The translations under genes and the position numbers were made by a program. A stretch of DNA of 64,000 nucleotides from a virus. Lineage: Duplodnaviria; Caudoviricetes. This document shows positions 17,795-37,002 of the stretch, one piece after another (position 1 is the stretch's first letter; every line of letters begins with the position of its first letter). The stretch covers positions 1-64,000 of IMG/VR virus record IMGVR_UViG_3300037722_000889; one strand, written 5' to 3'. A model generated the notes under the pieces. That model was not told where the DNA came from. It saw nothing but the letters and a program-made list of their open reading frames with translations, and made no database searches.

Positions 17795-17795
17795 G

Positions 17796-19119: not shown

Positions 19120-19127
19120 GCTCCCTC

Positions 19128-20478: not shown

Positions 20479-20517
20479 TTCTTGTCTCCCTCATTGGAGT
20501 CAGTAGTTACGGTGCGG

Positions 20518-21727: not shown

Positions 21728-21774
21728 TGCGGTTCCCTCATTGGAGTGATAGTTACGATCCTGACATGTCAGGA

Positions 21775-22197
21775 TCAGTCGATGGCCGAGAAGATGTCGG
21801 TCGCCTCGGGATGGTCGTAGGCGTACGCCATCAGGCGGTCGTAGGCGTTGCGGATGGCATCCGAATCGTGCCCGCTCCACATCAAGTGGTTAAAGGTGAA
21901 GATGCAGACGATAATGCCGGCCGCATCCGGACTGACATCGCCCCCGTAGCAGTTACCATCTACCTCGATGTGCAGCTTGCCATCCGACTTCGGATACATG
22001 TAGCCGCCGCCGTTGGACAGCTTGACGAACTCCCAGTACCCGCCCTTGTACCCTTCAATCAACCGTTCCGCCATGGAGTAGATGGCGTACTCGACGGTCA
22101 GCATTTCACCGCCAAACAGGCCCGGCAGGAAGTTCAAGCGATCGTGCTCGGCTACGTGGTCAGCAAAGACTTTCTGTTCTTCGATAGATTCATTCAT
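21775..22197 (-). CDS. klcA: ArdB/KlcA antirestriction protein
   Basis: RLNFLPGLFG, YKGGYWEF..LSNGGGYMYP, SPDAAGIIVC. Confidence 0.9.
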   Translation of the reverse strand: MNESIEEQKVFADHVAEHDRLNFLPGLFGGEMLTVEYAIYSMAERLIEGYKGGYWEFVKLSNGGGYMYPKSDGKLHIEVDGNCYGGDVSPDAAGIIVCIFTFNHLMWSGHDSDAIRNAYDRLMAYAYDHPEATDIFSAID

Positions 22198-22214
22198 GGC
22201 AATGCCCTCATTGG

Positions 22215-22388
22215 TTAAAATAACAGTTCATCCACGTAATCGGGCTCCAGCCCGTACTCGTACAGCAGCTCTTCAGGATCGTCGGACCCTTCAAGCACTT
22301 GCCGGCGCATGTCCTCGACCAGGTCGTTGGCTACTTCCCGTGATAGGCCGTCTCGACGCACCAAAATGTCAGCGATGGATTCCGTCAT
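22215..22388 (-). CDS. Hypothetical protein
   Basis: 57 aa, GGAGG SD, ends YGLEPDY..LLF. Confidence 0.7.
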   Translation of the reverse strand: MTESIADILVRRDGLSREVANDLVEDMRRQVLEGSDDPEELLYEYGLEPDYVDELLF

Positions 22389-22651
22389 GACGCTTCCTCC
22401 AGCGGCCGCCTGGTGCGGGCCAGCCTGTAGGGCGGGTTCGCAATAGACAGGTTGCGCCACTGCTCTATAGCCTGGTAAGCCCGTGTAAACTCCGGCGAGA
22501 CCTTCGTGCCTTCTTTCTCATATATTTCCATCGCCCGGTGCAGCCACCCATACGCTACGTGCAGCGCACTGATGGGGTCACTCTCCGTGCCGTGCTTGAG
22601 GCCGCATTCAATCGCCTTGGCCAGTTCCGTTAGTTCGTCTTTGCGTCTCAT
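22385..22651 (-). CDS. Hypothetical protein
   Basis: 88 aa, ATGA overlaps. Confidence 0.65.
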   Translation of the reverse strand: MRRKDELTELAKAIECGLKHGTESDPISALHVAYGWLHRAMEIYEKEGTKVSPEFTRAYQAIEQWRNLSIANPPYRLARTRRPLEEAS

Positions 22652-22809
22652 GACACGCCCCTCCAGAACCGCTGCTCGTGACGACGGCGCGCAGCCTTGC
22701 GCCACCGCTTCGTCAGGTAGGGAGGGACGTAGTCAGACACGAATGCCAGGAAGGCGAACGCAAGACACAGGACGGCGAGTACGCCGGAGACTACGAACAG
22801 TGTTGCCAT
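22648..22809 (-). CDS. Small single-TM protein (not in ORF track)
   Basis: MATLFVVSGVLAVLCLAFAFLAFVSDYVPPYLTKRWRKAARRRHEQRFWRGVS; GAGGAGG SD; ATGA overlap. Confidence 0.7.
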   Translation of the reverse strand: MATLFVVSGVLAVLCLAFAFLAFVSDYVPPYLTKRWRKAARRRHEQRFWRGVS

Positions 22810-22851
22810 TGGAACCTCCTCATTGAGGTGTGATCGGTCTAGAATCTAGAC

Positions 22852-23109
22852 CTACAGTTGATAGCGGTCGTAGTTGCGGATCGCGGTGCGCTCGACGTAG
22901 TTCTCGACGAGCTGGACTTCTTCCCCTGCCGCCTCCTTGGCCTGCCGGAAGAGGGATGCATCGCAATCCTCTTCAAGATACACCGTTTCCCCTCGCTGGT
23001 ACGAGTAGGACGAGACCTTGTCCAGCAGGTTGAGGCGGGCCAGCTCGCTGCGCTTCACGTGCAGCCAGCCGTGGCCGGGGTCGGATGTGAAATGGTACTT
23101 GGTTTTCAT
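22852..23109 (-). CDS. Conserved phage hypothetical protein
   Basis: SDPGHGWL...YLEEDCDA; stop abuts a TCTAGA palindrome. Confidence 0.8.
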   Translation of the reverse strand: MKTKYHFTSDPGHGWLHVKRSELARLNLLDKVSSYSYQRGETVYLEEDCDASLFRQAKEAAGEEVQLVENYVERTAIRNYDRYQL

Positions 23110-23525
23110 GCTGCTTCTCCAGTATTGAAGGGCAGGGTGTGGCCGTCCCCCAGGATCTCGTTGACGAACGCCAGGGCATCGAACCATTCCGGTTCCACGG
23201 TGTTGTCGTTGCGGGCGTCCCCGTCGGACGTGACCTCGATCAGGTCTCCCAGGCGGTGCTTGGCCACGATCAGGGCGGCACAGACTACGTGGTCGTAGGG
23301 GTAGCGGTTGGTCTTGCAGAACCCGCTGCTCTTGGTGGACTCGATAAAGAAGTCCTCGTACGCTTCGTCTCCTACCCCGTTCAGGAAGAAGTGACTCGCG
23401 CTGATGGCGAAGTCCAGCAGCATGCCGGGTTCATTGAGCACCAGCTTTTCGACGTCGAACACGAGCGCCGCCCAAACATCGCCCGGCACCTCCTGCTTCA
23501 CTTCCCAATAATGTGTGTATCCCAT
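23106..23525 (-). CDS. Conserved phage hypothetical protein
   Basis: MGYTHYW...FCKTNRYPYD...VTSDG. Confidence 0.8.
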   Translation of the reverse strand: MGYTHYWEVKQEVPGDVWAALVFDVEKLVLNEPGMLLDFAISASHFFLNGVGDEAYEDFFIESTKSSGFCKTNRYPYDHVVCAALIVAKHRLGDLIEVTSDGDARNDNTVEPEWFDALAFVNEILGDGHTLPFNTGEAA

Positions 23526-23536
23526 GGTGGTTCTCC

Positions 23537-23977
23537 TCAGTTAGTTTGAAACTCTGACATGCCAGACGGCTCGTGGTGTCCTTCCAATACCAGCAGACAA
23601 TAGTAATTGTCTGGGTCGCCTTCATAGTGGTGCAGCTTCGCGGCCGTGCGCTGAGCCAGCTCGACCACGGTGGCAAGGTCAACAGTGATCACCTGGACGT
23701 AGTACGTATCCTGCCCATAGTTGTCCGCCAAGTCATCCGGCAGCAGCAGCAGGACCGAGTACTTGCCTGCTTCGCTTTCCTGCTCTACCGGGGTTACGAC
23801 GTATTGCGTCGGCGCCGGCAGTTCCTCCTCTTCCTTGGGCTCGGCAGCCAGCCGGAACTGCAGTTCCAGCCCGGCATGCCGGGCCAAAACGGCCAGCTCA
23901 CGTACCGTAGTGTCTTCGTCCTGCAGCGCCTCGCCCAGTGCTGCCAGTTTCATGCCGTGGTCTTGAATGCTCGTCAT
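23537..23977 (-). CDS. Hypothetical protein
   Basis: 146 aa; last codons run through a decayed CATG palindrome. Confidence 0.7.
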   Translation of the reverse strand: MTSIQDHGMKLAALGEALQDEDTTVRELAVLARHAGLELQFRLAAEPKEEEELPAPTQYVVTPVEQESEAGKYSVLLLLPDDLADNYGQDTYYVQVITVDLATVVELAQRTAAKLHHYEGDPDNYYCLLVLEGHHEPSGMSEFQTN

Positions 23978-24192
23978 GCTGCTTCTCCTTTTGGGAATCG
24001 AAATTTGGTCAGCCACGCTGGGCCTTTGGTGTTCCTGATCTGCTGCAGGGTGGCAGCATCCGCCGCCGATACGTGCCAGCGGTAGTGGCCGGTGTTCCAG
24101 CTTTCACGCAAGCCAGCCTTCCATTGCCGACCGTATGCTTCGGCGAACCGCTGCAGGACGGCGAGTTCTTCGGTGCTGAGATCTTCGTTCAT
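23974..24192 (-). CDS. Hypothetical protein
   Basis: 72 aa; LQQIRNTKGPAWL motif. Confidence 0.75.
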   Translation of the reverse strand: MNEDLSTEELAVLQRFAEAYGRQWKAGLRESWNTGHYRWHVSAADAATLQQIRNTKGPAWLTKFRFPKGEAA

Positions 24193-24665
24193 GTTTTCTC
24201 TCCCACGTCAAACCCCTGTTCTTCCAGCAGTGCCCGCACCGTGGTCAAGTACCATTCACGAGTCTCTGCCTTGGACACGACGGTGACAGGCCGCTGCCCG
24301 ATACTCAGGGAATCGCGAACCCAGACCACCTGGTACTCCTCACTGTCGTGCTGGTCAGTGGTTACAAGACTGCCGATCGTGCCATTGACCAGAGACCAAC
24401 TGACCTGGTCAGCCGTTTCCTGCAGTAGATGAACGTAGGCGGCTACCCAGCGATTCTTGCCGTTCAGCGTCCAATGCCCGTGTACCCCCTCTACTTTAAG
24501 GTACACGCCTTCAGGGCGGCGGCGTGGAGCGCCGGGAATGTCCACGTAGACATGGATGGACTTGAACAGGTAAGAGACCTTCTCTACTGCCGGCATGAAT
24601 AACTGAGTATGCCGGATGTCTTGCCGGTAGCGGTTGTACTTGTCGACATACGCTTCACGGTTCAT
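24189..24665 (-). CDS. Hypothetical protein
   Basis: 158 aa, ATGA overlaps. Confidence 0.7.
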   Translation of the reverse strand: MNREAYVDKYNRYRQDIRHTQLFMPAVEKVSYLFKSIHVYVDIPGAPRRRPEGVYLKVEGVHGHWTLNGKNRWVAAYVHLLQETADQVSWSLVNGTIGSLVTTDQHDSEEYQVVWVRDSLSIGQRPVTVVSKAETREWYLTTVRALLEEQGFDVGEKT

Positions 24666-24868
24666 CGGCTCACCTCCTCGCTCAGGTATCGCAAACAGGT
24701 TTTGGCCAGGTCGAGCGCGACAGCAGGCCTGCCCAGCGCATTGGTGATGTAATCTATTACGTAGGGGATCTCGTAGACTCCCAGCTCACGCGCCTGCTGG
24801 TAGGCCTGCTTACGCTGGCCGTTGACCATGCTGGCGTAGATCTCGTCCATATCTGCACGTGTTGTCAT
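24662..24868 (-). CDS. Hypothetical protein
   Basis: 68 aa, GAGGAG SD. Confidence 0.7.
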   Translation of the reverse strand: MTTRADMDEIYASMVNGQRKQAYQQARELGVYEIPYVIDYITNALGRPAVALDLAKTCLRYLSEEVSR

Positions 24869-24879
24869 GCCCGTTCTCC

Positions 24880-25125
24880 TCAGTAGTTGACTCGCTTCAG
24901 GAACTCCTGGACTTCATCGGAGTCCAGCCAGTCCAGCTGTGCCTGGGTCAGGGCGGGCTCGTAGTTGTCTTCGTAGCTCGCCAATACCCCGCAATCGGTA
25001 GCCACGGCGTAACTCGCGAAGTACTTGCCGTCTCGCTCCACCCAGACCTGGTTGCCGGGCCGGTCGTCATTGGGCGCGGTAGTGAGGGTGAGGCCGTGCC
25101 TTTCCAGGCAATTCTCTTGATCCAT
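24880..25125 (-). CDS. Hypothetical protein
   Basis: 81 aa, GAGGAG SD. Confidence 0.7.
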   Translation of the reverse strand: MDQENCLERHGLTLTTAPNDDRPGNQVWVERDGKYFASYAVATDCGVLASYEDNYEPALTQAQLDWLDSDEVQEFLKRVNY

Positions 25126-25126
25126 G

Positions 25127-25540
25127 TCAGTTCTCCTCGGCCAGCACGAGTTCGTCGGGCACTTCGACCTCATCGCCGAGTTCGCTGGCGGCGTGGCAGC
25201 GCATGGCGGCTTCGAGGAGTGTTTTGCCATATTCAAATGCTCGCCATGCTATTGGGTGGCGCCCGTCCAGAATGGGCTCGTGCAGCGGATCAATGTATTT
25301 GTGGCCCCCGAGCCAGGCATAGAACAATCCGTTATGTTGATTCCAGCGCACACCTTCTCGCTCGATGATCGGGCCGCCAAACGACCAGTTGGACGAGTAT
25401 TCCGCCACTTGGTCCGGACCTATCTTGGTGATAAGCTCCCCTGCCAGAATTGTCCTACCTTCCGTCAAGCGAATGACTGCGCATTTCGCCACCGCCCAAT
25501 CAAGTGCGCGCCCTTTGAGTTCAGCGGTTTTGATTTTCAT
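25127..25540 (-). CDS. NinX/DUF2591-like phage protein
   Basis: MKIKTAELKGRALDWAVAK...YSSNWSFGGPIIERE...AAMRC..SELGDEVEVPDEL. Confidence 0.8.
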   Translation of the reverse strand: MKIKTAELKGRALDWAVAKCAVIRLTEGRTILAGELITKIGPDQVAEYSSNWSFGGPIIEREGVRWNQHNGLFYAWLGGHKYIDPLHEPILDGRHPIAWRAFEYGKTLLEAAMRCHAASELGDEVEVPDELVLAEEN

Positions 25541-25748
25541 ACCAGTTCTCCTCGCCGACCAGTACGGTCGGCATCCTGCTGTTGACGAACGGGCGGGCCT
25601 CGATGTCATCAGCACACTGCAGTAGGGCGATGGCGATCTGACGCGCCTCCTGCGGGGTGAAGTAGCCCTGGTCCACGTTGGGGCTGGCCAGGATGGTCAG
25701 GGCCGCCGTGCCGCGGAACCGGTAGATCTGTGCTCGACAGTGCAGCAT
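25521..25748 (-). CDS. Hypothetical protein
   Basis: 75 aa, GGAGG SD. Confidence 0.65.
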   Translation of the reverse strand: MLHCRAQIYRFRGTAALTILASPNVDQGYFTPQEARQIAIALLQCADDIEARPFVNSRMPTVLVGEENWYENQNR

Positions 25749-25760
25749 GGTTTCTGCCTC

Positions 25761-26009
25761 CTATGAGTGGTACGAGAAGAGGCGAGACTCTTCCCGGTAA
25801 ACGGCGCCGATGACGTACTCCCGGTCGCCCTCGGTCTGCGAGTAGTACGCGGTCAGGTCGCCGTCTCGATCTGTGATGATCTCGACGTGGCCGAACCCCT
25901 CGACACTCCAGGCTGACAGGTAGCCTACAGCCTCGAACACTGCCGACATCGGAATCTCGTGTTTCAGGCAGTGCTGGGCATAATCAACGCGGTGGATTAC
26001 GGTTCTCAT
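25761..26009 (-). CDS. Hypothetical protein
   Basis: 82 aa, GGAG SD. Confidence 0.7.
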   Translation of the reverse strand: MRTVIHRVDYAQHCLKHEIPMSAVFEAVGYLSAWSVEGFGHVEIITDRDGDLTAYYSQTEGDREYVIGAVYREESRLFSYHS

Positions 26010-26188
26010 GGCTTCTCCCTCCAGGCGTAGACCTGGGGTCGGTCGTACCGTTGCTCGTGCTCGTTCACCACTTCCACGGCATGTTTGGCGGATGCCAGGG
26101 TGAAGTGAGTTTCCAGCACGATGTCGGTTGCGGTGTTGTAGACCTCGTAATGGTCATGAGGGCTGATGGCGGGCGGGTTAGGTCTCAT
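26006..26188 (-). CDS. Hypothetical protein
   Basis: 60 aa, ATGA overlaps. Confidence 0.65.
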   Translation of the reverse strand: MRPNPPAISPHDHYEVYNTATDIVLETHFTLASAKHAVEVVNEHEQRYDRPQVYAWREKP

Positions 26189-26691
26189 ATCAGACCCCTT
26201 TCCGCGAAGCTCACGGTCTCGGTGCCGCCCACGACGATGTGATCCAGGACCCGCACGTCGATCAGGCGAGACGTATCCTGCAGCCGGCGGGTGAGGGTCT
26301 GGTCGGCCTGGCTGGGCTCCGGCACGCCAGACGGATGGTTGTGGTAGAGGATCACCGCGGCGCTGTTGTGCGCCAGCATGGACTTGGCCACCTCACGGGG
26401 GTACCCGCTGGCCCCGTCCAAGGTGCCGCGGAACAGCTGCTCGTCCTCGATCAGCCGGTGACGGTTGTCGAGATGGAGCATGCCGAACACTTCGTGCTCC
26501 AGCAGGGCGATGTGCATGATGAGGTGGTCCTTGACCATCTGCGGCGAGGACAACGGGTCGGTGGCGCGGGCCATGCGGTTCTGCAGGATGATCTTGGCCT
26601 GCTCGATGATGAGGTTGTCCGCCACGGCAGCCGGGGCCTGTGCCGGGAACAGCTGGTACGTGGGGGATGTTTCTGACTTGACTTTGTTCAT
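26185..26691 (-). CDS. radC: RadC-like JAB-domain protein
   Basis: EVFGMLHLDNRHRLI, HNHPSG, PSQAD, VLDHIVVG. Confidence 0.92.
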   Translation of the reverse strand: MNKVKSETSPTYQLFPAQAPAAVADNLIIEQAKIILQNRMARATDPLSSPQMVKDHLIMHIALLEHEVFGMLHLDNRHRLIEDEQLFRGTLDGASGYPREVAKSMLAHNSAAVILYHNHPSGVPEPSQADQTLTRRLQDTSRLIDVRVLDHIVVGGTETVSFAERGLI

Positions 26692-26745
26692 GGTGCTTCT
26701 CCTCAGTGAGAAGCGATCCTGACATGTCAGGATCGCGGTGGTTGG

Positions 26746-27066
26746 TTATCGGAACTGCATGCCGTCCAGGGTGTACACCCGCATGATCGGGCCGCGGGGA
26801 CTGTCCCAAAACACGGTGATCTTGTCGCCCTTCAGGTCCCAACAGCCGATGGTCACGTTATCGATGCCCTGGATGTGGGCGTATGCCAACAGCCGGTAGG
26901 GGCTGGAATCGAAGGGGCATTTGTCTTGGGTCATGACGATGTCCCCGCCGGCCTCGCTCTTGAAGTACGCCTCGTTGAAGTCCGCGGCATACGCCTTGGG
27001 CAGGAACACGAGAGCGAGTAGGGCGAACAGCAGGGCGGCGATGGTTACGGTAAGAATGGGCTTCAT
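26746..27066 (-). CDS. Secreted/periplasmic protein
   Basis: Sec signal peptide ending AYA-A; two Cys in the mature part. Confidence 0.7.
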   Translation of the reverse strand: MKPILTVTIAALLFALLALVFLPKAYAADFNEAYFKSEAGGDIVMTQDKCPFDSSPYRLLAYAHIQGIDNVTIGCWDLKGDKITVFWDSPRGPIMRVYTLDGMQFR

Positions 27067-27101
27067 TGCGGATCTCCTCAGTGAGATGGTTGGTCTAGAA
27101 T

Positions 27102-27350
27102 CTATACTGCGGTTTTGAACTCGACTTCCTGTTCCAGGCGGTTGATATTGACCGTGGTGATCAGTTTCGCGCCCGGAACTCTGGGTTGGAACCCGATGAT
27201 CTCGTACACCGATTTCTCGGGCAGCGGGATCTCGTACACGTACATGGTAGCGATCTCGCCCGTGTCCTTGGCGCGTTTCATCATGGCCTTGTCACGGTCT
27301 TCGTCCGTGGCCCAGCCGCAGAAGTCGATTGCGAGGTAGTGCTTTTTCAT
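27102..27350 (-). CDS. Hypothetical protein
   Basis: 82 aa; TAG stop lies inside a TCTAGA palindrome. Confidence 0.7.
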   Translation of the reverse strand: MKKHYLAIDFCGWATDEDRDKAMMKRAKDTGEIATMYVYEIPLPEKSVYEIIGFQPRVPGAKLITTVNINRLEQEVEFKTAV

Positions 27351-27369
27351 GGTGGTTCTCCTTGGTTGG

Positions 27370-27831
27370 TTAAAACTGTACGCGAGAGGATGTGGTTGCC
27401 TTCGGGCACAGGGCGGAATGACGAGGCCGGGGTGCCAGCTCCCGGATCTCGCCACTCAGCAGCCCCTCCAGGATTTCCTGAAACTCCTGCTCCGTTACCT
27501 GCTTCCGCTTTTCCCCGCGCAGACACATCACGTCGTCATGGAACAGCTGCAGCGCGCCGAGCTGTTCAACGGTCAGGCCTGTCTCTTGCTCGATGTCCTG
27601 TGGCCCGCCCGGTAAAGACCGGGCCAGCATGACGACTGAGGCGCCCTTTATCAGGTCGTCGCGGTGCATGAGATCCAGGGTAGGCCTGGACAGCATCGCC
27701 CCGACTACGCAGCAGCGCCCTTGTTCGTCCTCGTACACGCACTCTTCAAGGCGTTCAGACCAGGCCCATAGCCTGCCCTCCTTCAGCAGGTCGAGGGCCT
27801 TCTGAATGGACTGCCTTGCTTTATCGTTCAT
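27370..27831 (-). CDS. Hypothetical protein
   Basis: 153 aa, CAGGAG SD. Confidence 0.65.
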   Translation of the reverse strand: MNDKARQSIQKALDLLKEGRLWAWSERLEECVYEDEQGRCCVVGAMLSRPTLDLMHRDDLIKGASVVMLARSLPGGPQDIEQETGLTVEQLGALQLFHDDVMCLRGEKRKQVTEQEFQEILEGLLSGEIRELAPRPRHSALCPKATTSSRVQF

Positions 27832-28207
27832 GGCGGTTCTCCTGTTCGAACCGGTCGAAGACCGGGATGGGGGATTCATAGGGGAAGCGGCTGTCGCAGG
27901 ACTCGATGTAGTGCCCGCCAAACGAGCCGCCCAGTACCGGGTTTCCGGCTTCGGTCAACGGTACGGCGCGTACCCGGCGGATAATCGCGTCCTCCGGCCT
28001 GATCGTCGGGCGCAGTCCATGGGCTATGTTGAGGTAGCCTGGGTATTCCCGCAGGTTGTCACTTTCGATCAGGGTCAGGCCTGGGCAGCCTTCCTGGGAC
28101 GTGAACACGTTGCAGTCCTTCACACGCAGCACTGCGTGTTTGCAGCCTGACGTCACGCCGCCGTTCGTACAGTCATCGCCGATGATAAAGACGAGTAAAC
28201 CTTTCAT
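27821..28207 (-). CDS. Hypothetical protein
   Basis: DCTNGGVTS...FGGHYIESCDSRF...PIPVFDRFE. Confidence 0.75.
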   Translation of the reverse strand: MKGLLVFIIGDDCTNGGVTSGCKHAVLRVKDCNVFTSQEGCPGLTLIESDNLREYPGYLNIAHGLRPTIRPEDAIIRRVRAVPLTEAGNPVLGGSFGGHYIESCDSRFPYESPIPVFDRFEQENRHER

Positions 28208-28261
28208 CGCATTTCTCCTCGTTGAGAGTGGCGGTCTAGAATCTAGACCGCCGTAGGTTGG

Positions 28262-29512
28262 TTACAGTGGCAGGTACCACAGGATGTCGTCGTAGTTGTC
28301 GATGTGCTTCCACCGTAAGCCCGAAGCACTGCGGACCATGGTCTTGCCGTCGCGCATCCTGTACAGCACATCCCCTGTGAGGCCGTGCGGGCAATCGCCG
28401 CCCTTCCACGGGGTCATCTGCAGCAGGCCGGGGTGGTCCAGTTCCTTGAAGCTCATGCGCCAGGTAACCTGTCCTTTGGAGTGGGCTACCTTGTACGGGT
28501 ACTCTCGTGACGGGTCGTGCTCAATCAGTTCGCCTACGGCGGCCAAATCCTCGTCACTGTTCCAGAACCGGTACAGCTTGCCGATGACCGGCGCCGCCTG
28601 TTTCTTGGCCTCCGCCTCTTCCTCCTGCTTCCGGTCGTACCACTGGATCGTCTGCTCCAGCAGCTTGATCATGGGCTCGGGATTACCATCCTTGGCGAAC
28701 ACCCGGAACTCAGATCCGCACGAGCGGCCTCTGGACAGCTTGATCTCGCACTCGTCGCAGTTCGAGTTGTGCACCTGACACAGGGCGCAGCTGGTTTCCC
28801 GGAACGAGAGCACGGTCTCGCCGGTCGTGATCAGGAAGCCGTCCCGTGACAGCCCGTACTCCTTCAGCACTTCTTTCCTGGCGCCCTTCCACTTGCGCAG
28901 GGAATGTTCCATGGCGGCGCGGGTGGTAATTGTCGGCGGGAACCCGGCCTTGGCTCCTGGCGAGAATGTGCTGGCCGGGACCGGGTAGAACTCCTGCAGC
29001 CAGGTATCCGGGCAAGCCTTCGGTACTTTCGGCTTGAATACGCGCCGCCAACCATAGCCTTCGTTGAAGACTTCAGGCTCGCGCTCGACCACGAGGGCGA
29101 ACGCCTCGCGCTTATTGTTTTCGTCGCTGAAGAACGGGCACCATGAGCCGTCATCCGTCTTCAGCGTGATGACGGTGCCCGGCTTGAATGCGAAGTGGTT
29201 GCTTCTCAGTACCTCGATCTGGTCCCCGACTTTCAAGCCCAGCTTTTCGCGCGTAGTTTTCTCCACTGGTTTCGTATCCACGCGTTCCCAGCCATAGCCT
29301 TCGTCGTAGACTTCTTCGGTTTCTTCGGTGGAGCCTTCGACGGTGAAGTAGGTTGTTTCTCCTGATCGCTCGTTGTAGAAGCGAGGGGCGATAGACCTGT
29401 CGTCCCGGGCTAAGCGAAGGATGTCGCCGGGCTGGCAGACCTCATGGCCTTTGCGTAGAACTTTGATCTTGTCTCCGACCTTCAGGCCGAGTCTTTCACA
29501 TGGCGTGGCCAT
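28262..29512 (-). CDS. Mosaic multidomain protein with internal repeats and a Cys-rich domain
   Basis: Two (E/K)RLGLKVGD repeats; CALC..CDEC..SCGS cluster. Confidence 0.75.
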   Translation of the reverse strand: MATPCERLGLKVGDKIKVLRKGHEVCQPGDILRLARDDRSIAPRFYNERSGETTYFTVEGSTEETEEVYDEGYGWERVDTKPVEKTTREKLGLKVGDQIEVLRSNHFAFKPGTVITLKTDDGSWCPFFSDENNKREAFALVVEREPEVFNEGYGWRRVFKPKVPKACPDTWLQEFYPVPASTFSPGAKAGFPPTITTRAAMEHSLRKWKGARKEVLKEYGLSRDGFLITTGETVLSFRETSCALCQVHNSNCDECEIKLSRGRSCGSEFRVFAKDGNPEPMIKLLEQTIQWYDRKQEEEAEAKKQAAPVIGKLYRFWNSDEDLAAVGELIEHDPSREYPYKVAHSKGQVTWRMSFKELDHPGLLQMTPWKGGDCPHGLTGDVLYRMRDGKTMVRSASGLRWKHIDNYDDILWYLPL

Positions 29513-29768
29513 ATTCTTTCTCCTCATTGAGTGGTTGGGTAATGATTTCTTTATTCTGCAGGACATCCTGCACGAAGTCCGCCGCAAACTGCTGACAGCA
29601 GCCCAGCATCTCCTGCACGAACTTGACCGTAGACTCCGGGCCGTTCACCTGGACGGACAGCCGGCAATAGGCTGCCAGAGACAAGACGGCCCGGTAGGGC
29701 AGGGTGGAGTGATGCGTATGATTTCCGGTGTTGATACGGACACCGGTACCGTGGTGCAGCAGCTCCAT
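29496..29768 (-). CDS. Hypothetical protein (uncertain)
   Basis: 90-aa ORF filling the gap; SD is weak. Confidence 0.4.
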   Translation of the reverse strand: MELLHHGTGVRINTGNHTHHSTLPYRAVLSLAAYCRLSVQVNGPESTVKFVQEMLGCCQQFAADFVQDVLQNKEIITQPLNEEKEYGHAM

Positions 29769-29769
29769 G

Positions 29770-29934
29770 TCAGCGAACCACCAGACCGAGGGTCTTCTTG
29801 GCGATCTTCTTACGCAGCTTGTCACCGGAGCGGGTGAGGTTGTCCGGGTTATGTGCCCACGTGGTGCGCTTCATGTTGGCGGTGCCGCTGAAATGCTTGC
29901 GGGCGGAGGGCTTACGGGCTTTGCTTGCTTTCAT
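29770..29934 (-). CDS. Small very basic protein (not in ORF track)
   Basis: MKASKARKPSARKHFSGTANMKRTTWAHNPDNLTRSGDKLRKKIAKKTLGLVVR; CTCAATGAGGAG SD. Confidence 0.7.
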   Translation of the reverse strand: MKASKARKPSARKHFSGTANMKRTTWAHNPDNLTRSGDKLRKKIAKKTLGLVVR

Positions 29935-30001
29935 CTTCAGTTCTCCTCATTGAGAAAGTTGGTCTAGAATCTAGACCGGGTTGGATCCTGACATGTCAGG
30001 A

Positions 30002-30613
30002 TCAGTACGGTGCTACTATTTCACATTGCGCCAGCGGCACGGGCAGGTGTTCCGCCATGCCGTTGGTTTCCGGATCGGACCCGTAAAAGCCACAGCAGCT
30101 GTCGGTCTCCTCCTCATCCTGCTCCAGGACGAAACCGTACACGTCGCCCTGGATGAACTGGTCGTATACCTTGACCTCGCTCTTCAGGCGCTGGCTGACC
30201 TTGTCCCACAGGCTGGCGCTGATCCGCTTCTTGCCGAACTCGGCGCGCACCTTCTCCGGGGTCACGAAGATCACACCGACCTGGCCAGAGTCCCAGGGGC
30301 AGGAGAATCTCTCCGTGCTCATGGTAATACCGGAATGGTCATACAGGTACAGTGGCAGCAGGTAGATGCCACACTCTTCGGCCGTGTCGGCCAGGGTTGC
30401 GGGCCGGTCGAAGTCCCGGTAGTCGTCGCTGCGGTAATCCTCCCAGGACTCGCGGTACTTCTTGCTGCTGCGTACCGCTTCCTTCAGCTTGTCCACGCCA
30501 TCCTTGTCACCGAGGTTGTAGCGGCTGTGCCAACAGGCCATGGTACCGAGGTTGTCCCAGTCACGCGGGCTCTCCGCGTCCTGGTCGGGGATGATCTTGA
30601 GTACGTTCTTCAT
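30002..30613 (-). CDS. Conserved phage hypothetical protein
   Basis: SPRDWDNLG...LPLYLYDHSGITMS...WDSGQVG...SCCGFYG. Confidence 0.8.
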   Translation of the reverse strand: MKNVLKIIPDQDAESPRDWDNLGTMACWHSRYNLGDKDGVDKLKEAVRSSKKYRESWEDYRSDDYRDFDRPATLADTAEECGIYLLPLYLYDHSGITMSTERFSCPWDSGQVGVIFVTPEKVRAEFGKKRISASLWDKVSQRLKSEVKVYDQFIQGDVYGFVLEQDEEETDSCCGFYGSDPETNGMAEHLPVPLAQCEIVAPY

Positions 30614-30648
30614 TCGCGTTCTCCTCATTGAGAAAGTTGGCCTAGGTT

Positions 30649-30930
30649 CTAGACCGCGGCGTAGCGGGGTACGAAGAAATTCTCCAGCTTGCCGGTCTCC
30701 CGGTTCAGGTGACGGGCGATGCCGTTGACGTCGTGCATCAGGTCGTGGTCTTCTGCGTTTGCCAGCCCGCTCAGACGCAGTGGCGTGTGCAGGTGAACGG
30801 CCGCCAGGTCCATCTGCACGCCGAGCCGGTCGACACTGTACCCGTAGTGATCAGCCGCGATCTTGCGCACTCGCGCAGTGATGACATCTACGTGTATCCG
30901 TTCTTCTTTGGTGAATGTTGCAAATTTCAT
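30649..30930 (-). CDS. Conserved phage hypothetical protein
   Basis: MDLAAVH..PLRL...HDVNGIARHLNRETGKLENFFVPRYA. Confidence 0.8.
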   Translation of the reverse strand: MKFATFTKEERIHVDVITARVRKIAADHYGYSVDRLGVQMDLAAVHLHTPLRLSGLANAEDHDLMHDVNGIARHLNRETGKLENFFVPRYAAV

Positions 30931-30967
30931 GATGTTCTCCTTGGGTTGAAATCCTGACATGTCAGAG

Positions 30968-31612
30968 TTACCAGTAATCCCGTTCCACTTCCTCGCAGGT
31001 GGCATACCCGCCACCGTACCTCAGCCTGAACTCCTGGCCTACGTGCTCCGCGTGCTTGGCACGCGGGTCCACCGCTTTTGCAATGGCCCAGAACTGCTGG
31101 TTGGCCTTGCCGATGTCTCCGAACCGGCGCTTGGCCAGGTTGTAACCGTGGCGCAGGAAGTGCAGGGAGTCCGTCCAGAACTGCGGGTCCACCTCGATGT
31201 CAGGGTCCATCCCTCTCATGCCTACGTCGATGATCGTATGGAATGCATCATCACAGTCGTGCCGGCGGGTACGCGGCACCGGCATCCGGTACGAACACCC
31301 GTTCGCGTAATACCCCGCCAAGCTGGCCGCATCCCTTGCGAGGTTCTCTTCCGCCGAGTACATGTTGCCCTGGCCATCCCGGCTCAAGTCGCTCCACTCG
31401 CCGCGCACGAACCACACGCCTCCCAGCGCCACCAGCTCGTCACCGACCGAGCCAATCGCCTTCAACCCATACTGGTGCTCCAGCAGGTCATGGGCGATCA
31501 GCAGGCCTTCCCTGGCGACCATCGGGGTTTCAATCATGCGCACGTCCTTGCACATCAGTCCCAGCTCTCCGAGACATATGTCCTCCCGCACTACCAAACT
31601 CACGCTTCTCAT
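30968..31612 (-). CDS. Hypothetical protein flanked by hybrid palindromes
   Basis: 214 aa; LLIAHDLLEH and DELVALGG suggest an HxxxE(H) metal site. Confidence 0.75.
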   Translation of the reverse strand: MRSVSLVVREDICLGELGLMCKDVRMIETPMVAREGLLIAHDLLEHQYGLKAIGSVGDELVALGGVWFVRGEWSDLSRDGQGNMYSAEENLARDAASLAGYYANGCSYRMPVPRTRRHDCDDAFHTIIDVGMRGMDPDIEVDPQFWTDSLHFLRHGYNLAKRRFGDIGKANQQFWAIAKAVDPRAKHAEHVGQEFRLRYGGGYATCEEVERDYW

Positions 31613-31659
31613 GGTTACCCTCCTCATTGAGGTATTGAAACTCTGACATGTCAGGACCG

Positions 31660-32004
31660 TTACACTTCCTGCTCCACCCACACGTACAGGATGGACCCTA
31701 CGGGCGGGCTGCCGAACAAGGCTGCCGTCTCGCTGATGATGTAGTGCCTGACGTTATACTCGGGCAAATTCACTTCCAGCGAACCTAGCTTGTACTTAAC
31801 GGTTACCTCGACCTCGATGTACTCGTCATCATCCTTCGGACGGCGACTGGATACGGTTAACCACATTGGCTTACTGCGGCGCAGGCCCGGGAACACCTCA
31901 TTCAGCTGCCTTGCGCACAGCAGCCCGTCCGTGGTGAACGGGCCGCTCCGCCACCAATCAAAGAGCAGGCCTGGGATGTACTGGAGCTTCACTGTCTTTT
32001 TCAT
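31660..32004 (-). CDS. Hypothetical protein (paralog of 32001..32348)
   Basis: TVSSRRP and LYVWVEQE are shared with the neighbouring ORF. Confidence 0.7.
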   Translation of the reverse strand: MKKTVKLQYIPGLLFDWWRSGPFTTDGLLCARQLNEVFPGLRRSKPMWLTVSSRRPKDDDEYIEVEVTVKYKLGSLEVNLPEYNVRHYIISETAALFGSPPVGSILYVWVEQEV

Positions 32005-32348
32005 GCTGATTCCTCCTGTTCAACCCACACATACAGGACGGTACCGGGCGACGGATTGTCGAATGCGTCGCGCACATCCTCCATAATGTACGTGCCGCCG
32101 CGAAGGCCCCTTCCCTCTACATACTCTCCATAGAAGTCCATCTTCACAGTGACGTGCTTCCGGCCGTCGGCAGGTTTGCGGCTGGACACTGTGACCAGTA
32201 GTGTCTTATCCGTATCCAAGTCCGGAAACAGGCTGTTCATAATGCCTCCGCACAAGTACCCGCCATGGCCTGGTAGATTCCACCGAGGCCCGTTAAACCC
32301 TCCCTCTCGGTACACAAATTCCACTGTCTTTTCCACTATCTCTTTCAT
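32001..32348 (-). CDS. Hypothetical protein (paralog of 31660..32004)
   Basis: TVSSRKP and LYVWVEQE. Confidence 0.7.
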   Translation of the reverse strand: MKEIVEKTVEFVYREGGFNGPRWNLPGHGGYLCGGIMNSLFPDLDTDKTLLVTVSSRKPADGRKHVTVKMDFYGEYVEGRGLRGGTYIMEDVRDAFDNPSPGTVLYVWVEQEESA

Positions 32349-32932
32349 GCCGATTCCCTCATCTGCCAAAGTTGGTCGTCTCCAACGGCATTCTTACCCT
32401 CCAGGGTAATCGCGCCGGCCTTGTTCAGCAGGCCCTTCTGGATCAGGGCCGCCTTCACCGCTTCCCACCGTTCCGACGTGATGCCGGTGTACCGGTGCGC
32501 CTCCCGATAGCGGATGTTCTTCTCGCCGCCATAGGAATTCTTGTGACTGCGGGTCGCGATCAGGACAATGCGCTCGTCCCGGGTCAGCTCCACCGGCGCA
32601 GGCAGGGCGGCTGCCAGGTCTCCGGGCAGGGCATGGGCCTTCAGGTATTGCCGATCGGACACCTGCTGCATCTCGACGATGACCACGCCAGGACGCAACG
32701 GCACATCCACGTGCTCTTCCGGCTTGAACGGATTGGCCGTGTCAGGGTGAGCCTCGGTGACCTTGCCAGTGGCAAGCTCGACGGCCTTGTACCAGGACCG
32801 GGAACCGCCGGACCAGAAGTTGTTGAGATGAACAGAGCTGGCGGTAATGAGCTGCACCTGCTTGCCCGAGTAGGCAAAGCAGCGATGGATGCACTCCGGC
32901 AGGTCTTGCGGCTTGATGTAGGTGGTTTGCAT
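32345..32932 (-). CDS. Hypothetical protein
   Basis: WSGGSRSWY motif; C-terminal winged-helix-like LIQKGLLNKAGAITLEGK. Confidence 0.75.
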   Translation of the reverse strand: MQTTYIKPQDLPECIHRCFAYSGKQVQLITASSVHLNNFWSGGSRSWYKAVELATGKVTEAHPDTANPFKPEEHVDVPLRPGVVIVEMQQVSDRQYLKAHALPGDLAAALPAPVELTRDERIVLIATRSHKNSYGGEKNIRYREAHRYTGITSERWEAVKAALIQKGLLNKAGAITLEGKNAVGDDQLWQMRESA

Positions 32933-32978
32933 TGTCTTCTCCTCATTGAGAAAGGTTGGGAATCCTGACATGTCAGGA

Positions 32979-33473
32979 TCAGGCAGGGGTGGCTTCCTTC
33001 AGCACCTTCTCGATGTGGCTCCAGATAGGATGCCGGCAGATGAACTTCCATTGCCCGCTTTCCAGCAGGTGAAGACTGAAATAGGACTGGCCTGCTGTCA
33101 TCTCGATCTTCCACAAGTTGCTGCTGCCTTCTACGGTAGCGATCCAAGCCAGGTTGTTGCCGACCGTAGGGATAGTCTGCGTGGTGATCTTGCGAGGTGG
33201 CGCTGTCGGCGGCCCGTCAATGTACTCAAGAGTGGTGCGGATACTTACGGCGAGCGAAGACTCGTCCTGCCCGTTCTCCTCCAGCTCGTCCAGCAGCCGC
33301 TGCGCCAATGCGTACAGCTCCGGTGCCATGCGCATCAGCCTTCCATTCGCCTCGGCTTCCTGCAGGCCGATGGATCGGCTACATTCGCGACCGGCGCTGT
33401 AGTACAGGTAATCCTCGTCGTCATCTTGGACCGGCCCGAAATCGGCCCAAGGGCCTTGGGTAAATTTTGCCAT
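32979..33473 (-). CDS. Hypothetical protein
   Basis: TQGPW...EANGRLMRMAPEL, a common phage domain. Confidence 0.75.
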   Translation of the reverse strand: MAKFTQGPWADFGPVQDDDEDYLYYSAGRECSRSIGLQEAEANGRLMRMAPELYALAQRLLDELEENGQDESSLAVSIRTTLEYIDGPPTAPPRKITTQTIPTVGNNLAWIATVEGSSNLWKIEMTAGQSYFSLHLLESGQWKFICRHPIWSHIEKVLKEATPA

Positions 33474-33528
33474 GCTCTTCTCCTCAGTGAGAAACTCTGA
33501 CATGTCAGAGTTTGTGATGGTCTAGGTT

Positions 33529-33714
33529 CTAGACCTCGACGTTGCGCCGCCGGATACGGTCAAGCAACTGGGCGCAGGTAAGGTCGTTCTCTTCTATCTC
33601 GTCCACCAGCTCTGGGCAGTCGAACATGGCGTCATACGCTTCCTCCGTCTTCCCGTGCCGGTGCAGGTTGAGGATCATCCGCTCAACCACGGGCTGTGGA
33701 TACCTCTCGCTCAT
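33529..33714 (-). CDS. Hypothetical protein
   Basis: 61 aa; TAG stop lies inside a TCTAGA palindrome. Confidence 0.7.
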   Translation of the reverse strand: MSERYPQPVVERMILNLHRHGKTEEAYDAMFDCPELVDEIEENDLTCAQLLDRIRRRNVEV

Positions 33715-34088
33715 GTTGGTTTCCTCGCTTCAAAATGCACACAGCCATACTCCGCCCCGAAATAGACCGCGCCATCGTGCCCGCACTCAATCCCACACTC
33801 GTCAGGCTTCATGCCGCGGGCATCAAACGGCGCCTTGTGGCAGGGATAGGCAAGGTGGACTGCGTGGTACGGCAGACCTGGCACTTCGTTGGAGTAGGCC
33901 TTCCCCTCCCTTTCCCAGTGCTGGCAATCCTTGCAGGTGCCGATGAGGGTGGTGACTCGGCCTTGCAGGAAGCCACGGAACAGTCGCAGCTCGCGGGCCG
34001 CGCTGGCCGCATTAGTGCTGTAGTCCTCCACCTTCTGCTCGTTATCACACGTCCCCAGGTACTCCCGCATTGCCTGTTCCAGGTTCAT
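33711..34088 (-). CDS. Hypothetical Cys-containing protein
   Basis: CKDCQHW and FGAEYGCVHF motifs. Confidence 0.7.
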   Translation of the reverse strand: MNLEQAMREYLGTCDNEQKVEDYSTNAASAARELRLFRGFLQGRVTTLIGTCKDCQHWEREGKAYSNEVPGLPYHAVHLAYPCHKAPFDARGMKPDECGIECGHDGAVYFGAEYGCVHFEARKPT

Positions 34089-34324
34089 GGCCACGCCTCC
34101 TCCACGACCATCTGCACCCTGTCGGGCGGGTCAGGCAGTAATATCTGCAACTCGGTACCACAGCCCCCGCACTCTGCCCCCTTTCCGTCCAGGTGGCTCG
34201 CCAGTTCAGGCGGCACACTCGCGGCCAGGTAGCTATTCCACTGACCGTCGCGCTCAATCGACTGAAACACTACATCTCTACCGCACTTCGGGCAGGGCGC
34301 TATTACTTTATCGTGTATGCTCAT
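34085..34324 (-). CDS. Zn-ribbon protein
   Basis: CPKCG...CGGCG. Confidence 0.7.
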   Translation of the reverse strand: MSIHDKVIAPCPKCGRDVVFQSIERDGQWNSYLAASVPPELASHLDGKGAECGGCGTELQILLPDPPDRVQMVVEEAWP

Positions 34325-34326
34325 GG

Positions 34327-34518
34327 CTATGTCTCCTGCACGTCGTCAACACTCCACTGACCATCACGCACGGAGTAGCCAAACTCCTCACACGCATCCT
34401 CCGAAGCCTCCACCTTTCGCTGGGCTTCTTCCGCACTCTCCGCCTCCACCAGATGCATCAGGGTGCGGTTGTCGGTAACGTACACTCGAAAGGTTTTCAG
34501 TCTGAGTTCTTTATTCAC
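34327..34518 (-). CDS. Hypothetical protein
   Basis: GTG start with GAGGAG SD; VEAESAEEA motif. Confidence 0.7.
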   Translation of the reverse strand: MNKELRLKTFRVYVTDNRTLMHLVEAESAEEAQRKVEASEDACEEFGYSVRDGQWSVDDVQET

Positions 34519-34563
34519 GGTGCTTCTCCTCACTCTAGATTCTAGAATCCTGACATGTCAGGA

Positions 34564-35004
34564 TTACCAATCAAATATCGGGAACAGGTTCTTGTACAGC
34601 TCTGCGTCCCGGTCGAACATGACGTAGCGGTGGCCCTTCTTACGCGCCCAGGCCAGGATGTCGTCCAGGTACGGGCAGCCCATGCTCTCTCCCCTGCGCA
34701 TGGCGTTGGGGTCGGTGTAGGTCAGCCAACCATATTCACCCAGACTATAACTGATGCAATTATCCAGGCTGCCTTCATCCAACTTCTCCGCCGTTTCCTT
34801 CGGCACGTGGCCGGTAGACAGGATCGGGCAGGTGAAGGTCTCGACTTGGGTCTCTGCACGTGCCAGTTGCATTCGCAATGCTTCACACTCTTCGCGCAGA
34901 GTGAGGAAGGTCTTGACTCCGGCTTCCTGTTTCAGCTGTGCCATCTCTTCCCGCAAGGCTTCACACTCCTCGCGCCAGGCGCGGTTCGACTTGACTTCTG
35001 CCAT
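34564..35004 (-). CDS. Hypothetical protein
   Basis: Coiled N-terminus; LSTGHV...YGWL...YVMFDRD C-terminal domain. Confidence 0.75.
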   Translation of the reverse strand: MAEVKSNRAWREECEALREEMAQLKQEAGVKTFLTLREECEALRMQLARAETQVETFTCPILSTGHVPKETAEKLDEGSLDNCISYSLGEYGWLTYTDPNAMRRGESMGCPYLDDILAWARKKGHRYVMFDRDAELYKNLFPIFDW

Positions 35005-35043
35005 GATTTTTCTCCTTACTCTAGGTTTTAGAATCCTGACATG

Positions 35044-35445
35044 TCAGGATTGCTCGCTCTCCGCCACTGCTCGGCGCATGATCCAGTGTGCCTGATCCAA
35101 CAGGGCCAGGGCTTGCGTGGTCAGCGCGCATGGTATGGGCGGCAGGTCTGGCCTGGCTTCATCCGTCTCCAGTTGGTAATGCAGCTTTTCAATTTGCTGC
35201 GCCTCTTCCAACAGCCACAGGTTGGCAGGTGGTCGATCCCGCTCGTACTCCTTGCGTGCATCTTCCAGCCACTGCACCGCTTCAAGCAGGGAGGAGCGCG
35301 TGGCAAAGCCTTCTTCCCTGCCGTCCTCGTGCTTCAGCATGATCTCGAATGCATTCCAGGTGAGTCGCTCGATGACCCACACCTGTGGACCGATTAGATA
35401 CTGCCAACAGTGAGGGCCAACTATGGTAAGAGTGTTGGCGCGCAT
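35044..35445 (-). CDS. Hypothetical protein
   Basis: 133 aa; TGA stop lies inside a CATG palindrome. Confidence 0.7.
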   Translation of the reverse strand: MRANTLTIVGPHCWQYLIGPQVWVIERLTWNAFEIMLKHEDGREEGFATRSSLLEAVQWLEDARKEYERDRPPANLWLLEEAQQIEKLHYQLETDEARPDLPPIPCALTTQALALLDQAHWIMRRAVAESEQS

Positions 35446-35771
35446 GGTGCTTCTCCTTCCGGCAGGAGTGACTCCAGGAACTCACGCTCCTGACGGGCGA
35501 GGTCGGCGAGTTCATCGGTCCAGGCGATGTGCAGCCACACGTCGTGCGCTTCCATGTACTTCCCTATCTCCCCATCAAACAGATCGTACGGAGTGCTGCC
35601 GCACCCTCGCACGCCGGTGGCCTCCCGCACAGGGCAGCCGCTACAGTCTTTAACGAAGAACAACTTGCACAGTGGACAGTTTGCCGTGCCCAGGTCCCGC
35701 CCGTCATGACACTCAATTTCCTTCCACTTCTCGATACTGCCGCGCAGGGCGGCCAGAGTTTGTTCATCCAT
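35421..35771 (-). CDS. Cys-rich hypothetical protein
   Basis: SIEKW...CPLC...CSGCP...GCGSTPY. Confidence 0.75.
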   Translation of the reverse strand: MDEQTLAALRGSIEKWKEIECHDGRDLGTANCPLCKLFFVKDCSGCPVREATGVRGCGSTPYDLFDGEIGKYMEAHDVWLHIAWTDELADLARQEREFLESLLPEGEAPCAPTLLP

Positions 35772-35932
35772 ATCGTTTCTCCTCATTGAGAAACTCTGAC
35801 ATGTCAGAGTTTCAGGCGTTGATCCAGTGCCGTTGGAAGCGGCGGATATACCGCTTCTGCTGCGGCCAGGGGACCGGCAGGAGGGTGCAGAGGGCGCACT
35901 GGTTCCTGCCGGTGGTAATGAACCGCAGCGGG

Positions 35933-36130
35933 TTACAGGGCATACCGGGTAGCCTGGACATGAATGTGGCGCTTGGGCAGGCGGTGGCGTGCATCAGCCA
36001 CAGCTTCCAGAAGCTCCGCACGGGCCTCCTGAGCGGCGATCAGGTTCTCGCGGGTGGCGCAGTCACGCAGGCGCTTGCAGGCCTGGCGGTAGGCGAGGCG
36101 CAGGCAGGTGAGGGTGTAGAGGTTCTTCAT
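35933..36130 (-). CDS. Hypothetical protein
   Basis: 65 aa, AAGGAG SD. Confidence 0.6.
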   Translation of the reverse strand: MKNLYTLTCLRLAYRQACKRLRDCATRENLIAAQEARAELLEAVADARHRLPKRHIHVQATRYAL

Positions 36131-36234
36131 GGCTTTCTCCTTCATTGGAAATGCACCACTGGGATTCCCCTGGCCTCAATGCAAGGGGGAGTGGTGCTGG
36201 TTTGGGTGTAACGTATATCAGTTCGAGGGTATAT

Positions 36235-36480
36235 TCAAGCGGCCTCGGCCTGGGCGTTCGTCCGGGCCAGCTCCCGGCGCAGGTAGGCCTGGGTGACCGC
36301 GGAGTCGCTCAGGTCCGTCGCTTCCTGGCAGGCATAGCCGGCCAGGTAGATGTTGATGCCCCTTACCTTCTGGGCAGTCTCATTCCACGCCTCTGGCGTG
36401 TCGCAGCCTTCGTTGCAGTCCCACAGGAAGATGAGGGTCTGCTCCAGGTTGTCGAGTTCGGCTTTATCTTCAGGGGTCAT
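36235..36480 (-). CDS. Hypothetical protein
   Basis: 81 aa, AAGGAG SD. Confidence 0.7.
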   Translation of the reverse strand: MTPEDKAELDNLEQTLIFLWDCNEGCDTPEAWNETAQKVRGINIYLAGYACQEATDLSDSAVTQAYLRRELARTNAQAEAA

Positions 36481-36564
36481 GATGGTCTCCTTCATTGGAA
36501 AGGTCGGATCGTCCGACAGGTTGATCCCGATATGTCGGAAGGGTGGATCCTGACATGTCAGGAT

Positions 36565-36870
36565 CTAGGTTCTAGACTCGCTGGCCTCCTTTACTGCGCC
36601 TACGAAGGCGGCAACATGCTGGGGCAGGTCCACCGGCTTTCCGGACAGTGCGGCTTCTTCGAATCCGCCGGCAACCTCCAAGGCGTCCAGTATCCCCATG
36701 GGCTCCCCGGTCACCTGGTAGTACAGCGCGCTCAGGGCCATGCCGGCGCATTCCAAGGCCCCTTGCGCGTACAGGTTCTGGCCGTCGTCCTCCCCCTCGA
36801 TTCGGTCCATCGCGGCGCCGAGGATGATTCCAGTTACGAATGCAAGCTGCTCGTGGCTCATTGGGTGCAT
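36565..36870 (-). CDS. Hypothetical protein
   Basis: 101 aa between two composite palindrome sites. Confidence 0.7.
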   Translation of the reverse strand: MHPMSHEQLAFVTGIILGAAMDRIEGEDDGQNLYAQGALECAGMALSALYYQVTGEPMGILDALEVAGGFEEAALSGKPVDLPQHVAAFVGAVKEASESRT

Positions 36871-36970
36871 AGTGCTCTCCTTGGTTGGGATCCTGACATG
36901 TCAGGATCTAGGTTCTAGGGCTGCCGGCCTTCATAGGGGAGGGCGGCGGGGCCGGCTTGCCGCGTGGCCG

Positions 36971-37002
36971 GTTGCGTGACTTGTTGCGTGACTTGTTGCG
37001 TG
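36971..37002. repeat. 12-bp tandem repeat (GTTGCGTGACTT) x about 2.7
   Basis: gttgcgtgactt gttgcgtgactt gttgcgtg. Confidence 0.9.

Follow-up and report, generated by a model that had tools for sequence, protein, structure and literature searches.

Reciprocal hybrid palindromes around a single phage gene: a possible footprint of past exchange at a repeated junction element

Introduction

Short conserved boundary sequences occur in mosaic phage genomes. In behaviour, the PeSL (promoter-early stem-loop) cassettes of T4-type phages are the closest described analogue of the locus reported here. Their repeated unit combines a promoter with a stem-loop and lies between stop codon and Shine–Dalgarno sequence in regions rich in small accessory genes without assigned function (PMC2839356, PMC4122927), where it is proposed to mediate indels and replacements of single genes by homologous recombination, with mini-circles being able to form (Arbiol et al. 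2010 PMC2839356; Comeau et al. 2014 PMC4122927). This exchange was shown by comparison of sister phages as well as by physical detection (PMC2839356, PMC4122927).

Here we describe P, our working name for a palindromic junction element of 18–24 bp with an invariant 10-bp core, TGACATGTCA, in an uncultured, lytic-looking phage. The window, i.e. the whole stretch of DNA that was analysed, comprises the first 64 kb (64,000 nucleotides) of a 78,682-bp IMG/VR record that is about 94% complete. Like PeSL, P is found between the stop codon and the Shine–Dalgarno sequence or start of the following gene, among accessory genes (17–40 kb), and it has a stem-loop. In contrast to PeSL, which includes a σ70 consensus promoter, only two of the 19 P copies are promoter-like (35037 and 34551). 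P is also a near-perfect palindrome of 18–24 bp built around its invariant core, the phage is unrelated to T4 (its best Pol A match being at 35%), and the putative exchange at P is read here from the sequence of a single genome.

A second point of comparison is provided by the stoperators of Cluster A mycobacteriophages, i.e. asymmetric 13-bp sites of a monomeric immunity repressor in temperate phages (PMC9283540, PMC6550527). P shares with them the many copies of a short operator-like sequence, which are located in short gaps of a transcribed early region with extra copies in a control region. Unlike stoperators, P is symmetric and has no fixed orientation, and neither an integrase nor, among about 35 early proteins scanned, a recognizable repressor was found in this lytic-looking phage.

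Two further systems rely on dedicated recombinases. The attC sites of integrons are imperfect palindromes of about 60–140 bp with paired boxes and extrahelical bases. An array of small, uniformly oriented genes associated with a palindromic element resembles the present locus, but P is far shorter than attC, perfectly symmetric and absent at some genes; there is no IntI or other tyrosine recombinase by the array, and circular cassettes were not seen in the Logan contigs of four runs. In attL and attR, reciprocal hybrid arms flank an inserted segment around an identical core. Arms of this kind are present here at the 4-nt level, but the identity extends over only 4–5 nt, the pair includes an imperfect outer arm, two other hybrids lack a partner, and a recombinase, an attB-like empty site and an attP-like circle were not found in the record and contigs.

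Results

The phage and its leftward genes

The window has a GC content of about 0.60, and its leftward (minus-strand) genes span from about 40.3 kb down to 0.3 kb. In addition to the genes listed below, this block contains DUF5983, DUF6874 and many small unannotated ORFs.

Leftward block, minus strand: Pol A with 5'-3' exonuclease, SNF2 helicase, thymidylate synthase, ATP-dependent ligase and an Nmad5 protein
19561–20478, minus strand: C5 methyltransferase, in the palindrome-punctuated array
21775–22197, minus strand: ArdA-type antirestriction protein, in the palindrome-punctuated array
25127–25540, minus strand: NinX, in the palindrome-punctuated array
26185–26691, minus strand: RadC-like JAB protein, in the palindrome-punctuated array
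Record positions 73964–76126, minus strand: SbcC/Rad50-like gene, in the last 14.7 kb of the record
Record positions 77379–78431, minus strand: SbcD/Mre11-like gene, in the last 14.7 kb of the record

The phage thus encodes general recombination and repair functions, i.e. the SbcC/Rad50-like and SbcD/Mre11-like proteins, a ligase and Pol A with its 5'-3' exonuclease, the best cultured match of Pol A being at 35% identity (Vibrio phages). Nucleases of the SbcC/SbcD type process hairpins and double-strand breaks, which makes them notable here, as the genome that encodes them has 19 palindromes as well as an inverted repeat of 198 bp. A separate observation is that the minus-strand gene set at 17000–37000 resembles the anti-defence islands of plasmid leading regions.

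Copies, layout and arms of P

The core TGACATGTCA is present in 17 exact copies in the window versus 0.07 expected (0 of 100 shuffles). All of these are located within 18.7–40.3 kb, and none occurs outside the window in the remainder of the 78,682-bp record. When two core mismatches were allowed, two further, decayed copies were detected (17120 and 23555), which are, going by their arms, true relics of P and bring the total to 19.

17116–40331, minus strand: the whole P array, 19 copies at junctions of about 53 early or accessory genes

Read in the coding direction (minus strand), a typical junction consists of a stop codon, P, 10–50 nt, a Shine–Dalgarno sequence (often CTCAATGAGGAG) and an ATG. 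Of about 24 gaps between genes that measure 35 nt or more, about 15 contain P; P-free junctions are many, with most other genes being coupled via overlapping stop and start codons. Four P copies lie in a gene-poor control region at 38.5–40.3 kb. Several modules consist of a single gene between palindromes, including the one that is the subject of this study and is termed gene X below. The arms, given for the sense strand, fall into few types.

13 copies: upstream arm (A/G)ATCC, downstream arm GGAT(C/T), the majority type
Sites 33498 and 35797: upstream arm AACTC, downstream arm GAGTT, the symmetric ACTC type
Site 31644: upstream arm GGTCC, downstream arm GAGTT, hybrid
Site 30955: upstream arm AACTC, downstream arm GGATT, hybrid
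33492–33513: palindrome, symmetric ACTC/GAGT copy
35790–35813: 24-bp perfect palindrome, symmetric ACTC/GAGT copy
23551–23568: decayed copy, plus-strand core TGACATGCCA; sense-strand arms CCGTC upstream, GAGTT downstream
17116–17133: decayed hybrid copy with two core mismatches inside ORF 16942–17352; sense-strand arms AATCC upstream of the core, GAGTC downstream

What separates the two arm types is an exchanged dinucleotide, TC for CT (mirrored as GA for AG). Eight of the 38 half-sites are of the ACTC type and none is a single-step intermediate, so that variant halves look copied rather than point-mutated step by step. ACTC-type halves are uncoupled from their partner half at 3–4 sites, which places the boundaries of copying between the arms, inside the core. 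Both 17120 and 23555 are of the ACTC type in their downstream half but not in the upstream one; at 23555, the downstream half GAGTTTCAA is identical to that of 31644 and the upstream half is degenerate. The gene at 23537–23977 has come to include this relic at its 3' end, with its TAA lying 16 nt beyond the relic.

Further regularities concern positions next to or within the arms. Arm position 5 is often mismatched between the two halves (18711, 32966, 39438). The downstream flank TTCAA is common to 30955, 31644 and 23555 only, which hints at local copying. All five GAGT downstream halves immediately precede the ribosome-binding region, four of them having GAGTTTC in common. ATCC-type arms contain GGA and, in many cases, GATC or GGATCC, and these motifs are missing from the ACTC type. 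With a G at position 5, ATCC-type arms provide two GATC sites per copy (e.g. 36547–36564), often as GGATCC, and neither ACTC-type nor AATCC-type arms have any; the window as a whole, with 330 GATC sites observed versus 225 expected, shows no avoidance of this sequence.

P as a putative regulatory site

Symmetric P copies can fold into hairpins with 7–13-bp stems, a 4-nt loop and −8 to −17.5 kcal/mol, the hairpins of the two hybrids being the weakest in the array (−3.2 for 30955 and −2.6 kcal/mol for 31644). A role of P as an intrinsic terminator was rejected, as no U-tract follows the hairpins, and no Rfam family matched any P copy. P as a σ70 promoter was also rejected: CTGACA-18-TAGAGT is present at only two of 19 copies, and promoter-like matches are no commoner than in shuffled sequence. 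At these two sites (34551 and 35037; minus strand, 34532–34561 and 35018–35047) the palindrome contributes CTGACA as −35 and an adjoining motif of the TCTAG-N3-CTAGA type contributes TAGAGT as −10, which together make up a promoter-like unit with an 18-nt spacer.

The invariance of the 10-bp core, including what would be the loop, points to sequence-specific recognition rather than mere structure. In our view, P most probably serves as a regulatory site that is recognized by its sequence at module boundaries, perhaps an operator-like DNA site bound by a dimeric protein, perhaps an intercistronic RNA hairpin. Among the early proteins no regulator binding P was identified, and a scan of about 35 of them found no recognizable helix-turn-helix repressor.

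A reciprocal pair of hybrids brackets gene X

An initial annotation of this DNA had proposed that the palindrome occurs in two self-complementary variants, that the only two mixed copies flank one gene with their ACTC-type halves facing inward, and that a circle with an ACTC/ACTC site had integrated here by crossover in the core. The sequences and coordinates of the two arm variants, with the ACTC/GAGT copies at 33492–33513 and 35790–35813, match our data, and so does the arrangement around the gene, where hybrids at 30951–30968 and 31640–31657 bracket a single minus-strand gene at 30968–31612 with the ACTC halves inward.

30649–30930, minus strand: DUF6874 protein, 93 aa (PF21779, E 1.7e-24), downstream neighbour of gene X
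30951–30968: hybrid P copy downstream of gene X, plus strand ATCC-TGACATGTCA-GAGT
30968–31612, minus strand: gene X, 214 aa, phrog_7111, function not assigned
31640–31657: hybrid P copy upstream of gene X, plus strand ACTC-core-GGAC
31660–32004, minus strand: 114-aa orphan, upstream neighbour of gene X

The stop codon of gene X (TAA, 30968–30970) overlaps the inner arm of the 30955 copy, the 31644 copy is located 27 nt upstream of its ATG, and the core-to-core segment that includes gene X amounts to 689 bp. Gene X is the sole segment whose flanking hybrids are reciprocal and inward-facing. The mixed state itself is less exclusive than had been stated, since the search with two core mismatches shows that the copies at 17116–17133 and 23551–23568 are mixed as well. 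In addition, the outer arm of the 31644 copy (31654–31657) reads GGAC instead of GGAT and is off-consensus at position 4. If the two outer halves were joined, the resulting 'empty' site would be less symmetric than any other ATCC-type site of the genome; this imperfection of the inferred target site would count against exchange. The weak hairpins of the hybrids would fit decaying sites.

How often such a pattern arises by chance depends on what is shuffled. With whole sites being shuffled, adjacent reciprocal hybrids in the right orientation were obtained with P = 0.059 for the 17 exact-core sites and P = 0.16 when all 19 sites were included. With arms shuffled independently, a segment between two ACTC-type halves appeared in 44–60% of trials. 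As shuffles reproduce the pattern this often, the adjacency is merely suggestive.

Gene X and its neighbours

The start of gene X at 31612 is confirmed by M1 being common to 14 homologues. These homologues (n = 14; 38–50% identity) occur in unrelated phage contexts, indicating that the gene X family moves between phages; no repeated palindromes were found near them in these other phages. Gene X itself does not stand out in composition: a codon usage rank of 28 of 53, i.e. the median of the region, and an ordinary GC content give no sign of compositional foreignness.

Gene X carries the conserved motif AHDLLEH, and AHDxxEH...DE is invariant in the family. It has no Pfam match, and an Atlas lookup was uninformative. 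The AlphaFold model (pLDDT 93.5, pTM 0.89) has no match among solved folds (Foldseek best E 0.27; VIA best Z 4.6), and going by this model gene X may represent a new fold or enzyme. Gene X as the mobilizing enzyme was considered and rejected: it has no recognizable match to a recombinase, and weak rows for an FtsH protease domain were not trusted.

For the 114-aa orphan upstream, no homologue was found outside this phage among 5.8 billion proteins. The minus-strand genes at 31660–32004 and 32001–32348 are tandem paralogues (38% identity, E 2e-16), which both end in LYVWVEQE and are joined via overlapping stop and start codons without a palindrome.

Near-identical junctions

Several P-containing junctions resemble each other well beyond the palindrome, and such near-identical pairs are mostly neighbours. 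One pair, 36894 and 36551, is identical over 31 nt and flanks a single gene (36565–36870). In a second pair, 35037 and 34551, which also flanks one gene (34564–35004), a run of 23 identical nt lies within a stretch of about 43 nt that has four mismatches. The third pair consists of the two ACTC/ACTC copies, 35797 and 33498, with 26 nt in common without interruption, or about 36 nt if one mismatch is allowed. Duplicated junctions around single genes fit recombination at the repeated junction, but could also reflect local gene conversion or shared function.

Recombinases, population and relatives

Neither the tyrosine recombinase family PF00589 (no match at E ≤ 0.1) nor the serine recombinase family PF00239 was matched anywhere in the 78,682-bp record, with both being matched in control genomes. 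The sampled population, represented by five independent assemblies, is uniform at this locus: four other JGI and Logan contigs (L211, L216, L217 and L218) match at 100% identity over 1.8–6.6 kb, with L211, L217 and L218 covering the whole of gene X and L216 ending within it, and Logan contigs from four sediment runs bridge both gene X junctions with zero differences. In the contigs of these four runs, neither a gene-skipping joint between 30955 and 31644 nor the junction of a circle was seen, contigs being prone to hide rare forms. Contig breaks at 29989, 36551 and 36894 were rejected as rearrangements, since they represent repeat-induced unitig ends, and a joint 31443>35538 was disregarded with one side being only 21 nt and off any palindrome.

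Relatives of the locus were sought at several levels. Megablast and blastn with 29900–33600 gave no match among 50,697 phage records. A scan of IMG/VR for AYYC-core-GRRT returned six singletons; IMG/VR scans with the 14-mers TCTGACATGTCAGA and CCTGACATGTCAGG gave, among the matches listed, single-copy contigs only and no synteny; and metagenome and GTDB genome scans for the palindrome yielded essentially singletons. Searches for related loci with gene X and with Pol A found none, and the same search with the phrog_6186 neighbour found distant phages only (at most 48% identity), without synteny. None of these routes led to relatives in which a gain or loss of the gene was observed.

Some of the sequences encountered in these searches carry repeats of their own. 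The metagenome contig MWWH01000180.1, which has no protein similarity to this phage, contains a 36-bp palindrome twice (5930–5970 and 6424–6464), with the structure AACTCCGAAACCC-TGACATGTCA-GGGTTTCGGAGTT. Pantoea-like DNA (L210, Pantoea rwandensis, as well as L124 and L066) has several TTC-TGACATGTCA-GAA sites within a few kb, which are probably operators of an unrelated regulator. A distant phage with phrog_6186 (IMGVR_UViG_3300028840_004168) contains six copies of TGTAATTACA adjoining TTGTCAAG together with several copies of AAGTATACTT, i.e. repeated promoter/operator-like units between early genes.

Discussion

An important question is whether the hybrid arms around gene X record an event or merely look like one. 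The explanation that we tentatively place first is past homology-driven exchange at a repeated regulatory palindrome. P punctuates the leftward early/accessory operon, and having the same 12–31 nt at about 19 junctions gives general recombination and gene conversion short stretches of homology to act on. The hybrid arms would have arisen when an ATCC-type copy and an ACTC-type copy were exchanged with a breakpoint in the invariant core, and the 689-bp segment with gene X would be a module that came from ACTC-type surroundings by insertion or replacement, be it through a double crossover with a related genome or a single crossover with a mini-circle. This reading is favoured by the uncoupled half-sites without intermediates, the near-identical junction pairs, the general recombination functions of the phage, a gene X family that moves between phages, and the PeSL precedent. 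A dedicated site-specific recombinase would not be involved, and the event, if real, would be old and fixed in the sampled population. At the same time, ACTC/ACTC sites cannot be produced by core crossovers, which means that arm type must also change in place.

The first observation of this locus was largely correct, but overstated. A crossover in the central core is reasonable given the missing intermediates and the long shared runs, with the adjacency of the two hybrids being the statistically weak part. Site-specific integration of an ACTC/ACTC circle finds no support: neither a tyrosine nor a serine recombinase is encoded in the record, an empty site and a circle junction did not turn up in the contigs of four runs, and the unpaired hybrids, the non-significant adjacency, the median codon usage and the location of ACTC/ACTC sites between ATCC-flanked modules all disfavour it.

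Nearly as likely as core exchange, if doubtful in itself, is that two sites were altered independently, be it by drift, short-patch gene conversion or quasi-palindrome templated mutation, and are neighbours by chance, with gene X having always been in place. The permutation results (P 0.06–0.16) fit this, and so do the two other mixed or decayed copies without partners, the mismatches at arm position 5 (18711, 32966, 39438), hybrid hairpins as weak as in decaying sites, the ordinary composition of gene X and the invariance of the sampled population; the TTCAA flank shared by 30955, 31644 and 23555 suggests local copying over import. However, the changed halves exactly match the alternative arm type instead of being random, and their reciprocal inward orientation, which is predicted by exchange, would here require a coincidence.

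It seems improbable, but worth considering, that the arm types are functional half-site variants, with ACTC/GAGT representing a second specificity (for a different or heterodimeric regulator) or the removal of GGA/GATC, in either case selected at some genes so as to tune their expression, with gene X simply being under different control. In favour of this are the location of all five GAGT downstream halves directly before the ribosome-binding region, four with GAGTTTC, the presence of GGA, often with GATC or GGATCC, in ATCC-type arms and its absence from the ACTC type, and the C5 methyltransferase encoded by the phage. Yet no regulator was identified, there are no intermediates, and the ACTC-type upstream half that follows gene X, i.e. 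at the 3' end of the gene, is left unexplained.

Least probable is an integron-like system in which an unrecognized recombinase of phage or host cuts the core and moves circular single-gene cassettes: reciprocal hybrid arms around a common core, as in attL/attR, uniformly oriented and promoterless-looking genes each followed by a palindrome, and many unannotated early ORFs that leave room for a novel enzyme are outweighed by the absence of PF00589 and PF00239 from a record where controls matched, by P being a short perfect palindrome unlike attC, by the lack of empty or circular forms in the contigs of four runs, and by the unpaired hybrids and the many junctions without P.

Homology-driven exchange at P stays in first place, and the footprint around gene X, being one isolated case with weak statistics in a genome for which no relatives were found, is a lead rather than a result. 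A more far-reaching idea, which we regard as unlikely at present, is that the entire array serves this phage lineage, unrelated to T4, as a recombination platform on which single accessory and anti-defence genes are gained and lost by core crossover, possibly via mini-circles, with arm dialects recording the origin of modules and gene X being the first visible footprint.

If past exchange at P is real, the PeSL principle, i.e. regulatory repeats doubling as shuffling points, would extend to an unrelated, uncultured phage of proteobacterial type, and with a much simpler element than PeSL, consisting of one short palindrome. With ArdA, a RadC-like protein, a C5 methyltransferase and Nmad5 in its array, this phage could show how counter-defence genes are reshuffled, and hybrid half-sites would allow past exchanges to be read directly from the sequence.
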